A DNA stretch of 64,000 bases from Candidatus Spongiihabitans sp. (GTDB taxonomy: Bacteria; Pseudomonadota; Gammaproteobacteria; Arenicellales; Poriferihabitantaceae), in the NCBI GenBank assembly GCA_965261425.1, contig OZ253452.1:2592645-2656644 (forward strand), in the 5' to 3' direction. The translations under genes and the position numbers were made by a program. Each line of letters starts with the position of its first letter. The stretch's first letter is position 1. Below the pieces are notes generated by a model, which made no database searches, was not told the DNA's origin, and worked only from the letters and a program-made list of their open reading frames with translations. Below are positions 40,080 through 60,527 of the stretch, piece after piece.

Positions 40080-40305
40080 GCCAAAAAAACAGCATGGAAG
40101 AGATTTGACACAGACGACCCCAAGGATGAGACTGTGCAAAAAACCAATATTTGTCGTTCCTAACCCCCCTAGCCCCCCTTATCAGGGGGGAATTGAGTGG
40201 AAAGTCCCCCTGATAAGATACTGTGTTAAAAATCCACTTATTTTCAACTTTTTTTCGGCTCATTGTTAGAATGACTTTGCCTGCTGGGATTCCACCACAA
40301 ACGCG

Positions 40306-41300
40306 CTATCTGCAAGCATAATTGACATCAAAAGGCTGTTCTGATTTTAATACCCCATAAGATATAACCAGTAGTTTCCGCATCACCGCGCACACTGCCA
40401 CTTGTTTAGGTTTGCCTTTATCAAGCAGCCTATTGTATAAATCCTGCGTGACTGGATTGTGTCGCGTTGCCGTCAGTGCTGGCATATAGAGAGACTTTCT
40501 CAGGCGTTTGTGCCCTATTTTTGACAGACTACTCTTGTTGATACTACTGCCAGACTGGGTTATCTTCGGATTCAACCCAGCAAAACTGGCCACTTGCTTG
40601 GCGTTATCAAATGACGATATATCCCCCATATAGGCGAGGATAGCCCAAGCCGTTTTGTTGCCAATCCCGCCAATGCTGGTCAATAACCGTACTTGTTGAC
40701 GCAACACAGAATCGCCCGCAACCAAGGCCTTGATTTCCTGTTCAACAATCACTATTTGCCGACAGATGTACCGAATCATCGCTTTGATTGATTTGCTGGC
40801 GGTCTTATTCAAACTCACTGGCAAACGATTCTTCTCTTGGGTTGATTGTTTGTTTAACTGCTCCAAGCGCGTCATCAGGCATTGTAACGCAACACTGGCT
40901 TCGCTTTTGGGCTTGAACCGGTTTTTCTCTAACTCACCCTTGACCACAATATACTGACAATAACGCGCAATGCTGCCAGCACTTGTGCCCTGTGGGTATC
41001 GGATTTATCCGTTTTATTACGCAACATCTCCACCTTGACAAACGCATGGGTTCTCATTGGGTTCGCCACAATCACCTGGTCGCCTGAGCGATGTAAATAA
41101 TACGCCAAAGCAACCCCATAAACGCTGGTGGCTTCCATACAAAACACTCGCTCTTGCGCTGCGCCCAATGATTTTAGCCATTTGGACAAGGCTTTGAAGC
41201 CTTTATGATCATTAGCAAAAGACTGGTTGTGGTCAACATCCTCAACGCACACAGCACCATCAAAACGTGCTTTAGATATATCAATACCGATACATAACAT
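40306..41300 (-). pseudogene. IS110 transposase split by a 17-bp insertion (40982-40998)
   Basis: Direct comparison with the intact copy at 57937-58914. Confidence 0.9.
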
Positions 41301-41340
41301 AACATTCTCCGGTTATAATTGTAGATAGGTTGGATCATTT

Positions 41341-41615
41341 AACTTCGGTGCATCCTCGTACTATTCGTACTCAGATTTTTGGTCTTGCACCAGATACTGT
41401 CCGCACTTGATGAAGTTTATGTACAAGGACGTACGGGCAAATAATTGCTCCTGCATTATTTGCACTTCCGCCATCCATGGCGGTCGTATGCCGGTTTTGC
41501 AGGAGCAAAAACCGGTAAAGCGGGTAGTAGGTGCGATACCTTATCAACAAGTTTAAAAACTTACTGGGGATTACTGCATCACTACTACCCATCCAACCGC
41601 CGTTGGATAGGGTCC
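41341..41615 (-). ncRNA. IS110 bridge RNA, copy 1 (extra 51-nt hairpin insert)
   Basis: Guides at 41566-72, 41539-46, 41392-400, 41355-60. Confidence 0.75.
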
Positions 41616-42043
41616 ATTAAAAACCACTAAACGAGTTGATAATTTACCCGATTGGGATCATACGAGGGGGATTTAGGGGGTTGGGTTTTCCACCAGCGCA
41701 ACCTAGCAAGGGATTCTTGCACAGTCTCGAAAGCAGGAATCCAGTAAAACAAGCAAACCCGCAAGGGTTTTCTACATGTAACATGCACTGGCTTATGGTT
41801 TTTTGCACAGTCTATTCAGTCGCGCAAGACCGTTGTAAGTGGTGGGACTTAATGTACAGGACACCCGGGATAAACGAGGAAATTCTCTCATTTTCGGTAA
41901 ATCTGTTTTACTCTCTGTGTCGAAAATAATCTATTGTATGCACAATCAAAATTTATGGCCCAAAAACCCAATTCCTGTTAAGATGTGCCCTTACACTAGA
42001 ATTATATTAAACAAAAAATACTCGCCAGCAAAGTTACTGGAAT

Positions 42044-56503: not shown

Positions 56504-57622
56504 ATGCATCTCCTCATATCCATCTACAGCCTCTCCTCAGGCGGCGCCGAGCGCGTTACCGCAAATCTTGCCAATTATTGGGCCGAAAAAGGCTGGCGCA
56601 TAACCCTTGTTACCATGATAGGGGATGCACCGGATTTCTATGAGCTTCATCCAGCGATTCAACGCATCGCCTTGTCCCATCCTAGCGGCAGTCATACCCC
56701 ATTAAATACAATCAAACGTAATTATCGGCGTATAAAAACCTTACGCAACATACTCAAACAGCAACAACCCGAAGTGGCACTTGCTATGATGATCGATGCC
56801 AATGTCTTACTCGCCATGGCCGCAAAAGGGCTGGGTATCACTGTGATAGGTTCAGAGCATAATCATCCCCCTATGCTCCCTGTGGGTAGTGTGCGTGAGT
56901 GGTTGCGCCGCCATACTTATGGGCATTTAGATGCGGTTACTGCATTAACCACTGAAAGTGCAGATTGGTTAAAGAAACAGACCAATGCCAAAGATGTACC
57001 CATCATTGCCAATGCGGTTACTTATCCTATACCATCGCATTCGCCCAAAGTTCGTCCTGATTGGTCCAGTAATCGTTTTAACCTTATAGCAGTGGGACGG
57101 TTGGCGCCAGAAAAAGGCTTTGAACGTCTGTTATCGGCGTTCACAGAATTAGTCGCACAGTTTCCAGATTGGCATTTGACCATTCTTGGCGAAGGTGTCG
57201 CGCGTGATGCTTTGGAAAAGAGACGCTCGGCACTCGATTTAGAACAATGTGTTTCACTACCAGGGGTGGTCGGCAATCTCGGCGATTGGTATGCAGCAGC
57301 AGATTTGTATGTTATGAGTTCTCTTTCTGAGGGGTTTCCCAATACCTTATGCGAAGCAATGGCGTATGGTTTGCCGATTGTGAGCGTTGATTGCGATACC
57401 GGTCCGCGTAACATCATTCGCCATGAGGTTGATGGCTTGTTAGTGCCACAGAATAATCATGGCGCATTGGTCGAGGCATTGGCGACTTTAATGAGTGACA
57501 AGGCATTGCGTCAACAATACGCTACTCGTGCCATTGAAATTAGAGAGAGGCTATCTATGGAAAAAATTGCTGGGATGTGGGAACAGGTGTTTGTCAAACT
57601 TGCGGGGCAGGCTGATGAATAA
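56504..57622 (+). CDS. GT4 glycosyltransferase
   Basis: GGAERV, GRLAPEKG, EGFPNTLCEAM. Confidence 0.92.
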   Translation: MHLLISIYSLSSGGAERVTANLANYWAEKGWRITLVTMIGDAPDFYELHPAIQRIALSHPSGSHTPLNTIKRNYRRIKTLRNILKQQQPEVALAMMIDANVLLAMAAKGLGITVIGSEHNHPPMLPVGSVREWLRRHTYGHLDAVTALTTESADWLKKQTNAKDVPIIANAVTYPIPSHSPKVRPDWSSNRFNLIAVGRLAPEKGFERLLSAFTELVAQFPDWHLTILGEGVARDALEKRRSALDLEQCVSLPGVVGNLGDWYAAADLYVMSSLSEGFPNTLCEAMAYGLPIVSVDCDTGPRNIIRHEVDGLLVPQNNHGALVEALATLMSDKALRQQYATRAIEIRERLSMEKIAGMWEQVFVKLAGQADE

Positions 57623-57936
57623 TAGACCAGACCTTTGTATAATTGTCGAAAGTGCGGCTACAGCCGACCCCGAGGGACTAAATTCTCATTCGTCTTTCCG
57701 TACGAAAGAGACTATGCAAGAAACCCATTTCCGTCATTCCTGCGAAAGAGACTGTGCAAGAAACCCTCCTAGGTTACGCTGGCGGAAAACCCAACCCCCT
57801 AAATCCCCCTTGTCAGGGGGACTTGTCACTCAATTCCCCCCTGATAAGATACTGTGTTAAAAATCCACTTATTTTCAACTTTTTTTCGGCTCATTGTTAG
57901 AATGACTTTGCCGGCTGGGATTCCACCACAAACGCG

Positions 57937-58914
57937 CTATCTGCAAGCATAATTGACATCAAAAGGCTGTTCTGATTTTAATACCCCATAAGATATAACC
58001 AGTAGTTTCCGCATCACCGCGCACACTGCCACTTGTTTAGGTTTGCCTTTATCAAGTAGCCTATTGTATAAATCCTGCGTGACTGGATTGTGTCGCGTTG
58101 CCGTCAGTGCCGGCATATAGAGAGACTTTCTCAGGCGTTTGTGCCCTATTTTTGACAGACTACTCTTGTTGATACTACTGCCAGACTGGGTTATCTTCGG
58201 ATTCAACCCAGCAAAACTGGCCACTTGCTTGGCGTTATCAAATGACGATATATCCCCCATATAGGCGAGGATAGCCCAAGCCGTTTTGTTGCCAATCCCG
58301 CCAATGCTGGTCAATAACCGTACTTGTTGACGCAACACAGCATCGCCCGCAACCAACGCCTTGATTTCCTGTTCAACAATCACTATTTGCCGACAGATGT
58401 ACCGAATCATCGCTTTGATTGATTTGCTGGCGGTCTTATTCAAACTCACTGGCAAACGATTCTTCTCTTGGGTTGATTGTTTGTTTAACTGCTCCAAGCG
58501 CGTCATCAGGCATTGTAACGCAACACTGGCTTCGCTTTTGGGCTTGAACAGATTTTTCTCTAACTCACCTTTGACCACAATATGCTGACAATAACGCGCA
58601 ATGCTGCCAGCATCGGATTTATCCGTTTTATTACGCAACATTTCCATCTTGACAAACGCATGGGTTCTCATTGGGTTCGCCACAATCACCTTGTCGCCTG
58701 AGTGATGTAAATAATACGCCAAAGCAACCCCATAAACGCTGGTGGCTTCCATACAAAACACCCGCTCTTGCGCTGCGTCCAATGATTTTAGCCATTTGGA
58801 CAAGGCTTTGAAGCCTTTATGATCATTAGCAAAAGACGGGTTGTGGTCAACACCCTCAACGCACACAGCACCATCAAAACGTGCTTTAGATATATCAATA
58901 CCGATACATAACAT
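57937..58914 (-). CDS. IS110 DEDD recombinase
   Basis: GIDISK, MEAT, KTDKSDA, QSGSS, RKSLYMPA, A.MRKL. Confidence 0.96.
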   Translation of the reverse strand: MLCIGIDISKARFDGAVCVEGVDHNPSFANDHKGFKALSKWLKSLDAAQERVFCMEATSVYGVALAYYLHHSGDKVIVANPMRTHAFVKMEMLRNKTDKSDAGSIARYCQHIVVKGELEKNLFKPKSEASVALQCLMTRLEQLNKQSTQEKNRLPVSLNKTASKSIKAMIRYICRQIVIVEQEIKALVAGDAVLRQQVRLLTSIGGIGNKTAWAILAYMGDISSFDNAKQVASFAGLNPKITQSGSSINKSSLSKIGHKRLRKSLYMPALTATRHNPVTQDLYNRLLDKGKPKQVAVCAVMRKLLVISYGVLKSEQPFDVNYACR

Positions 58915-58954
58915 AACATTCTCCGGTTATAATTGTAGATAGGTTGGATAATTT

Positions 58955-59180
58955 AACTTCGGTGCATCCTCGTACTATTCGTACTCAGATTTTTGGTCTT
59001 GCACCAGATACTGTCCGCACTTGATGAAGTTTATGTACAAGGACGTACTGTATGCCGGTTTTGCAGGAGCAAAAACCGGTAAAGCGGGTAGTAGGTGCGA
59101 TACCTTATCAACAAGTTTAAAAACTTACTGGGGATTACTGCATCACTACTACCCATCCAACCGCCGTTGGATAGGGTCCA
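58955..59180 (-). ncRNA. IS110 bridge RNA, copy 2
   Basis: Target-binding and donor-binding internal loops with guides matching the target and the circle junction. Confidence 0.8.
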
Positions 59181-59552
59181 TTAAAAACCACTAACCGAGT
59201 TGATAATTTACCCGATTGGGATCATACGAGGGGGATTTAGGGGGTTAGGTTTTCCGCATGTAGCGCATACCTATCGAGGGTTTCTTGCACAGTCTCGATT
59301 TAATTGAGAATGGAAAATTGAGTAAAATCTCGTAATGATGACAGCCTAAGCGCCATAAGAGCGAAACAAAAGAGAGATGCCGCTCCTACGGAGCTGACGA
59401 AATATTGGGTTTTTGCAATCTCGGGAGCGGGACTTTAGTCCTGCCGTCGTTCCTGCGAAAGCAGGAACCCAGTAAAACACACAAACCCTCAAGGGTTTTC
59501 CACTTTAAGCTAAACCGTATCAAGAATGGAAAAATACAACAAAAATACAACT

Positions 59553-60527
59553 ATGAGCGATAAATTAGTATCGGTAATCATTCCGGTTTACAACGTCGAA
59601 AAGTTTGCCGAACAGGCAATCGTCAGCATCATCAAGCAGACCTATAAGCACTTAGAGATTATCGTTATTGATGACGGCTCGAGCGATAACACCTATAAAA
59701 TAGTCGCAGATTTAGCAACTCAAGACCCCCGCATCAGACTTTATAAAAACGAACGAAACTTAAAGATCGTGAAAACGCTTAATCGTGCTTTGTCGTTGGC
59801 GCAAGGCGAATATATTGCACGCATGGATGGGGATGATATATCGGCACTCGACAGAATAGAAAAACAAGTCGCTTTTTTAGAATCGAATCCTGACTATGAA
59901 CTGGTAGGGTGTAGTATGATTTTAATAGATGAAAGTGGCATGGAAATAGGTCGATCAGTAAAGTTTTCAGATTATGAGCTGTTGATGAAGTTGGCAACGT
60001 ATGAAATGGCTGTTGCGCACCCAACATGGCTGGCAAGAAAAAGTGTTTATCGCAAACTAAATGGTTACCGTGAACTTTCGGGCGCTGAAGATCGTGATTT
60101 TTTACTGCGTATGATTTCAGCAAAGTTAAAATATACCAACCTTGAAACCTATTTTGGGGTGGTTTATAGAGCAGATAGGGTTGGGGGCAGTAACGATACT
60201 TTGGGCCTACGGCGACGCAAAACAACCAATTATATTGATAAATTGTATGTAGAAAGGCAGAAAACTGGAATGGATAGTTTTAGCGAGGAAAACCTAAAAC
60301 AAGCCATTGTCACAAATATATTTTGGGAGAAACTGTATCATTTTTCTTGTAGATTTGAGAATAAGAGGCTTGAAGCCAAACATAACAAAAACTTTATTAA
60401 AAGGCTTGCATACACTTTTATTGTACTGATTTCACCGCATCAGGCGGGTCAAGTATTCAAAATTATTAAACGCAAGCTAATAATTAGGAGACATAACCAT
60501 AAATTCACAAGGAACCGTATTTCATGA
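59553..60527 (+). CDS. GT2 glycosyltransferase (paralog B)
   Basis: Highly similar to paralog A. Confidence 0.92.
   Translation: MSDKLVSVIIPVYNVEKFAEQAIVSIIKQTYKHLEIIVIDDGSSDNTYKIVADLATQDPRIRLYKNERNLKIVKTLNRALSLAQGEYIARMDGDDISALDRIEKQVAFLESNPDYELVGCSMILIDESGMEIGRSVKFSDYELLMKLATYEMAVAHPTWLARKSVYRKLNGYRELSGAEDRDFLLRMISAKLKYTNLETYFGVVYRADRVGGSNDTLGLRRRKTTNYIDKLYVERQKTGMDSFSEENLKQAIVTNIFWEKLYHFSCRFENKRLEAKHNKNFIKRLAYTFIVLISPHQAGQVFKIIKRKLIIRRHNHKFTRNRIS

Follow-up and report, generated by a model that had tools for sequence, protein, structure and literature searches.

A 64,000-nucleotide stretch of the Candidatus Spongiihabitans sp. genome (GenBank assembly GCA_965261425.1, contig OZ253452.1; positions 2,592,645 to 2,656,644), referred to here as the window, carries at 57847..59230 on the minus strand what is very probably a complete insertion sequence of the IS110 family, IS621-like, with a readable bridge RNA matched to a repeat of its host. 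This reading is carried by the protein family of the recombinase, a covarying RNA fold, matches between the guides in that RNA and the flanks of the element, a target shared by the other copies in the genome, and the co-variation of guide and target. By analogy with IS621, the non-coding left end would encode a bridge RNA consisting of a 5' hairpin, a target-binding loop (TBL) and a donor-binding loop (DBL), and both loops would be bound by the recombinase, with its DEDD RuvC-like domain and a Tnp domain containing the catalytic serine. The donor loop would pair with the joined ends of an excised circle (ACAGTAT-CT-CGTA) and the target loop with the palindromic host repeat, at AATCCCC of its bottom strand and CT-TATCA of its top strand, and strand exchange would take place at the CT core.

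The element is 1384 bp long including a CT core at each end, and its ends are common to 17 full-length copies in the genome (2.92 Mb, one contig), which also contains truncated and interrupted copies. All features of the element described below are on the minus strand and are read in that direction, with coordinates given for the window unless the genome is named. The element starts with CT-CGTATGAT and ends with ACAGTAT-CT. At the left junction, AATCCCC (59237-59231) is followed by CT (59230-59229) and then CGTAT, and at the right junction ACAGTAT (57855-57849) is followed by CT (57848-57847) and then TATCA (57846-57842). The left target half (LT), AATCCCC at 59231..59237, lies in the flanking repeat and is identical to the left target guide (LTG) of the same copy, while the right target half (RT), TATCA at 57842..57846, was read from the flank. 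The two junctions have only CT in common, and CT is found at both ends in all 17 full copies. As in IS110 elements, there are no terminal inverted repeats, insertion is site-specific and a 2-nt core is present at both junctions.

The sole long open reading frame (ORF) of the element, at 57937..58914, is an intact recombinase gene encoding 325 amino acids (aa), and was identified through matches to Pfam and to PDB chains. The product contains the N-terminal DEDD RuvC-like domain PF01548 (E 2.1e-20, 73.5 bits against a Pfam cut-off of 29) and the C-terminal Tnp domain PF02371 (E 3e-26, 92 bits against a cut-off of 21.3). When compared with PDB chains using phmmer, its best solved relative was ISCro4 (9t56; E 2.5e-54, 188 bits), and IS621 (8wt6) was matched at E 6.4e-50, in both cases over residues 4-321. 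The motifs GID, MEAT, KTDKSD and SGSS align with the catalytic motifs of IS621, with D7, E56, D98 and D101 (DEDD) and S244 aligned to the IS621 catalytic residues; QSGSS corresponds to ESGSS of IS621 and S244 to S241, an offset that was worked out by hand. A first-pass annotation made from the sequence alone had proposed an IS621-like recombinase, which is borne out by both domains, the catalytic residues and the E value against IS621. Database searches found 964 proteins at E <= 1e-40, none with a name more specific than "transposase", and the closest outside its own cluster was 76% identical. In a sample of genomes from the same class, a match at E <= 1e-60 was found in 5 of the 399 other genomes scored, all at 42-44% identity.

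The RNA was examined in an alignment of seven sequences, made up of two short-linker copies from this genome, locus L036 (68% identity) and loci L053-L056 (58-62% protein identity). This set is small because searches of genome contigs and of metagenome contigs gave few confirmed loci (8 and 10, respectively). The predicted fold has six helices and begins with a 5' hairpin, followed by a stem around a large internal loop that contains a small hairpin, a short linker and a second module of the same kind. In the alignment 97.3% of the cells are paired, the structure having been drawn from the same seven sequences. Compensatory changes were found in 14 of the 42 pairs, compared with 6.7 +/- 1.7 in shuffled alignments (0 of 500 reach the observed number) and 0-5 when the partners were slid, a result above both controls for these seven sequences. 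A scan of 57500-59600 against Rfam 15 found no family match, only chance-level ones (best E 0.52), and hence no match to a curated bridge-RNA model.

The conserved 5' stem-loop is located at 59152..59176 (helix 1; 8 pairs, 100% of cells paired, 1 compensatory). The target-binding loop module follows at 59086..59154, where compensatory changes affect 8 of 12 pairs in helix 2 and 3 of 4 in helix 3, and its outer stem is formed by GGGTAGTAG (59154-59146) pairing with CTACTACCC (59094-59086). Within this loop, the LTG AAUCCCC (59136-59130) matches LT at 7 of 7 positions and is followed by AG (59129-59128). A small hairpin (59126-59113) separates it from the right target guide (RTG) UGAUA (59110-59106), which together with the core-binding AG (59105-59104) is complementary to CT-TATCA; next to it is GU (59103-59102), the presumed handshake bases by position homology to IS621. 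The donor-binding loop module (58955..59030) is closed by the stem AACUUC/GAAGUU and includes helices 4-6. It holds the left donor guide (LDG) ACAGUAU+CU (59014-59006), which is ACAGTATCT in the DNA and corresponds to ACAGUAUCU, the last 9 nt of the element, as well as the right donor guide (RDG) UACG+AG (58974-58969), which is the reverse complement of the first 6 nt of the element. The presumed handshake bases on this side, again by position homology to IS621, are GA (58968-58967).

Positions were assigned to the guides from the homologous alignment columns of L054 and L055, in which the LTG reads its own LT+CT. The non-coding left end (306 nt) contains every one of the four guide strings exactly once. 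Among 20,000 mononucleotide shuffles, a given string turned up in 0.16-6.9%, at least two strings in 0.38% and the full set in none. A shifted register of the LTG was considered and rejected, as this would improve the match by no more than one base in the AGC variant and would not improve it in the AAT variant. The guide strings, 5' hairpin, closing stem and TATGAT motif all lie where they had been placed from the sequence alone, and the donor proposed there, the joined ends ACAGTAT-CT-CGTAT, agrees with LDG and RDG, which match both element ends with the core included. The target guide had been given as TGATAAGG (59110-59103), of which the position is correct but the last G is probably a handshake base, because the GU following the RTG occupies the handshake positions defined for IS621 (PMC11208158). 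Counted by hand, with the positions set by homology only, the GU/GA handshake would form a single Watson-Crick pair before the strands are exchanged and two, with an additional G-T wobble, afterwards, the same direction as the bias toward pairing after exchange described for IS621 in PMC13626964.

The target is the same throughout the genome. A motif search located 23 left junctions and 21 right junctions, and 22 of the 23 left junctions follow the xxxCCC(C) of one palindromic repeat, immediately before CT, the exception being a copy in tandem behind a partial left end. All 21 right junctions lie in the repeat, where CT is followed by TATCA (18), TGTCA (2) or TAACA (1) and then by a G-run. The alternative considered at first reading, that other copies are in unrelated targets, was thus checked, and no refutation was found at 22 of 23 left and 21 of 21 right junctions. 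The host repeat is a palindrome of ~72 nt with a site-like string in each arm, and the empty repeat unit was matched at 45 places in the genome; empty half-sites of the form xxxxCCC-CT-T[AG]TCA also number 45. Its remainders on either side of the window element, identified by repeat comparison, are at 57784..57846 (right) and ~59231-59250 (left). The reconstructed target site (57842-57852 plus 59229-59237) is itself a hairpin, with CCCCCT and AGGGGG enclosing a loop of TATC, and the exchange point is at the loop.

The repeat had been called a host REP (repetitive extragenic palindrome), and it is indeed a short palindrome present in many copies outside genes. However, a search for an association with a Y1/RAYT gene was negative: there are two PF01797 (Y1-transposase) matches in the genome, and the repeat motif was not found within 1.5 kb of either. 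A classic RAYT-REP was rejected on these grounds, and the term REP fits in a descriptive sense only.

Guides and targets co-vary, both within the genome and in relatives. Two LTG variants are present in the genome, AATCCCC in 6 left ends and AGCCCCC in 16. All six left ends with AATCCCC are in AAT-type sites (5 AATCCCC, 1 AAGTCCC), and all 10 GCC-type sites hold AGCCCCC; the association of LTG variant with left site type gave one-sided Fisher values of 0.0085-0.016, which overstate independence as the copies are related and some of their flanks may be segmental duplicates. On the right, the 16 elements with RTG TGATA are all at TATCA, and two of the three with TGACA are at TGTCA (p 0.0175). 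Sites of the form AATCCCC-CT-TATCA are filled in 9 cases and empty in 5, compared with 0 filled and 12 empty for AATCCCC-CT-TGTCA (p 0.0006). Among elements with two ends, both flanks are perfectly matched in 8 of 19 and the own right flank in 18 of 19. In L036, the LTG is GCAUCCC and the flank GCGTCCC, and the RTG UGAAUAAG matches the right flank CT-TATTCA. The guides of L054 and L056 fit their own flanks. In L055 the left guide fits, but the right guide predicts TTAAT where the flank reads TTTTC, a difference of 2.

The first-pass annotation had pointed out that the left target guide is followed by AG instead of CU. This is real, as LTG positions 8-9 are AG in all 22 readable left ends, and the left guide therefore cannot pair with the core. 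In the relatives, these positions are AA in L036, CU in L054 and L055, and CC in L053 and L056, and in remoter relatives (42-44% identity) they are mostly CT. In IS621, a longer RTG has been reported to raise efficiency (PMC11208158). It may be that the long RTG found here (5+2 nt) makes pairing between LTG and core dispensable, and that reading of the core on the target side is left to it.

With respect to expression, a -10-like TATGAT (59221..59226; 5/6 to TATAAT) is located at left-end positions 5-10, and relatives have TATCAT or TATCTT in this place. The positional homologue of a -35 is TGGATT (57862..57867; 3/6 to TTGACA) in the right end, where relatives have TTGACT, TTGATT or TTGCTT. 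With the ends joined, TGGATT would be 17 nt before TATGAT. We infer that the RNA is transcribed from the left-end -10 and the weak right-end -35 homologue, that a circle intermediate is formed, and that the copy at 57847..59230 is active at present.

Several observations, in addition to the relatedness of the copies, weigh against the bridge-RNA reading. Five of 15 left ends with LTG AGCCCCC are in AATCCCC sites, with two mismatches, so that the RNA of a copy does not always explain its site and either RNA acting in trans or an exchange among copies has to be assumed; the bridge RNA of IS621 is described as able to act in trans (PMC11208160). For IS621, the same source calls it "strongly preferred" that the RNA pairs with the CT core on both of its strands (PMC11208160). 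The -35 homologue is poor (3/6), and because the left flank of the integrated element contains a hexamer that scores the same, a junction-dependent promoter is not evident; a promoter scan found nothing at the left end of the element. Finally, the recombinase gene is broken in 11 of the 17 full copies, in ten by the same 17-bp insert and in one by a 1-nt deletion. Two other explanations were considered, one concerning this copy and one the whole family.

The former concerns the linker between the two RNA modules, which is interrupted at 59031..59079 by a dispersed hairpin mini-repeat of 49 nt, a secondary insertion with a boundary that is ambiguous by 1 nt. The RNA had been described as lengthened by a hairpin linker, and the extra hairpin is there; however, it is not intrinsic, as the mini-repeat is absent in 5 of the 17 full copies. 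The remaining full copies have linker inserts of 49 nt (1), 99 nt (1), 147 nt (9) or 195 nt (1), and three partial copies also have none. The 49-51-nt unit has at least 13 stand-alone occurrences elsewhere in the genome, and the longer inserts are nested, further modules each repeating the TTGCTCCTGCA motif. Metagenome contigs from all four runs examined join 59030 to 59080, the form without the 49 nt, which is already explained by sister copies.

One possibility is that the own bridge RNA of this copy is crippled by the 49-nt repeat, through misfolding, processing or pausing, and that the copy moves, if it does so at all, only with RNA supplied in trans by copies with a short linker. The 49-nt form is found in only one of the 17 full copies, trans action is on record for the IS621 bridge RNA (PMC11208160), and the mismatched LTG/site pairs described above (5 of 15 AGC-type left ends) show either such action or exchange between copies. 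In the predicted fold, however, the insert makes its own hairpins, and the stems of both modules (the target-loop stem and AACUUC/GAAGUU) stay intact. No terminator-like site was found in 57700-59400, another genome record has a copy (L031) with the 49-nt form between other flanks, and the nine copies with the 147-nt form are at different places. The linker of IS621 is described as disordered and not visible in the structure, and as dispensable, with separate TBL and DBL RNAs working (PMC11208158), and because of this it is plausible that the 49-nt repeat is tolerated in the linker here. A crippled RNA in this copy is considered unlikely.

The other explanation is that the elements survive in this genome only as fossils. 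The loss of core pairing in the left guide and the weak -35 would then be marks of inactivity, and the copy number would derive from old activity and from duplication of repeat-rich segments. The 11 broken genes are consistent with this, as are two further copies interrupted by inserts of ~1.77 kb and flanks that in some copies (c110k and c119k) are identical over 45 nt. The circle joint 57847 -> 59230 was also not seen in the contigs of four runs, though contigs fragmented by repeats cannot show one reliably and provide no evidence either way. However, the recombinase gene is intact in 6 of the 17 full copies, including that at 57847..59230, and the products differ by just 5-9 residues. The aligned pieces of the copies are 96-99% identical and stand behind a variety of upstream flanks, copies with 97-98% identity are present in three other genome records, and matching sites are mostly filled while those with one mismatch are empty. 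As AG is present here and AA in the 68% relative, the spread of the elements came after LTG-core pairing was lost. A fossil family is considered quite improbable. That the guide-like matches are coincidental or were carried over with the flanks by recombination, with no RNA guide involved, is scarcely credible, given that all four strings were recovered in none of 20,000 shuffles, that they fall in loop columns that are homologous across the alignment, within a fold in which 14 pairs show compensatory change, and that relatives with other flanks have other strings in the same columns.

The preferred reading, an IS110-family element with a bridge RNA directed to the host repeat, can be extended, though we do so tentatively and regard the extension as possible without favouring it. 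It would represent a bridge-RNA lineage in which the left guide gave up the core and the long right guide alone reads it, the linker has become a landing pad for nested repeats of 49-195 nt that have not stopped its spread (in effect a natural split-module RNA), and single-base guide variants partition the variant sites of one repeat. The element shows a conserved departure, with no pairing between LTG and core, and a secondary insertion in the linker; the RNA-guide principle is already established for IS621. The element adds little to the principle and provides three natural data points of possible use to bridge-recombinase engineers. It has evidently spread without LTG-core pairing, a state strongly disfavoured in IS621; copies with 49-195 extra nt in the linker occupy many sites; and, in a single genome, filled sites are set apart from empty ones by one base of the right target (TATCA versus TGTCA), while the rare TGTCA sites hold the guide variant that fits them. 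The element also illustrates cleanly how a host repeat and an RNA-guided element diversify together, here in the genome of an uncultured organism of symbiont type.

Further observations were made on the copies. A second copy is located in the window at 40216..41666 (genome coordinates 2632860-2634310), also on the minus strand. Its LTG is AATCCCC, its linker contains an insert of 99 nt, and its gene is disrupted by the 17-bp insert. The latter insert, TACCCACAGGGCACAAG, is inside the KTDKSD motif and is identical in the 10 full copies that carry it, so that the gene stops at aa 118-123; it is present in the 40216-41666 copy and absent from that at 57847-59230. The 17-mer and close variants were also found at unrelated places in the genome, usually before TGC and once in tandem, and its distribution resembles that of a dispersed mobile repeat of very small size. 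At genome coordinates 113463-113610, a partial left end (positions 1-148) is directly adjoined by a full copy (111966-113464), and they are joined at an internal CT of the RNA region. The arrangement at 111966-113610 is a tandem or off-target self-insertion. The two copies interrupted by ~1.77 kb are at genome coordinates 1593306-1596419 and 2236188-2239318, with the inserts at element positions ~290 and ~340; another insertion sequence is likely because 7 and 9 bp of the sequence flanking the inserts are duplicated. Four of the 17 full copies (c641k, c842k, c1448k and c1799k) and locus L031 have a 13-nt duplication, ACCAAAAACCTGA, in the hairpin within the donor-binding loop. The corresponding hairpin is described as touching the recombinase in IS621 (PMC11208158).

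In the window, the element and the repeat are located between two ORFs that resemble glycosyltransferase genes when their translations are judged by eye (56504-57622 and 59526-60527, both on the plus strand). Two direct copies of a unit of ~35 nt (gggtttcttgca.agtctctttcg) are found at 57700-57780. In metagenome runs, the depth of contigs summed over the flanking repeat segments at 57700-57835 and 59236-59300 was very high, reaching ~157,000 at 57772-57832, and the communities sampled are therefore rich in this family of host repeats.

The element was not named in the literature consulted on bridge RNA, IS621 and IS110, though supplementary catalogues of predicted bridge RNAs may include it. 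The first-pass annotation had proposed a new natural specificity and a candidate tool, and thousands of such RNAs are stated to have been predicted already (PMC11208160). A blastn search of E. coli genomes with the short-linker left end found no match. For the positions within the RNA, comparison with IS621 of E. coli rests on the published text (PMC11208160, PMC11208158). IS621 shares with the window element both protein domains and the aligned catalytic residues, a left end with a 5' hairpin, a target loop and a donor loop, the CT core, a -10 in the left end, ATCT at donor positions 6-9 and a repeated palindrome as target. The two differ in that LTG positions 8-9 are CU in IS621 and AG in the window element, and the RTG is 2+2 nt in the former and 5+2 nt in the latter. 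The linker is 11 nt in IS621, whereas that of the window element is basally ~5 nt, and a foreign repeat has brought it to ~54 nt. The two also have different target sequences, and the -35 homologue of the window element is weak. The likeness to ISCro4 (PDB 9t56) was seen in the protein alignment.

In the window element, as in the IS110 group, the left end encodes the RNA, upstream of the gene. In IS1111-group elements, the RNA is encoded downstream of the gene. The IS1111-group elements with a seekRNA (PMC13604230) belong to the same protein family as the window element. ISPpu9 and ISPpu10 of Pseudomonas putida, likened here by description, are IS110-family elements that are likewise found in repetitive palindromic intergenic sequences (PMC12288879). 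In ISPpu10, a target stem-loop is reported to add specificity (10.64898/2026.03.19.712850), and by analogy the hairpin formed by the reconstructed target site might conceivably play a comparable role in the window element.

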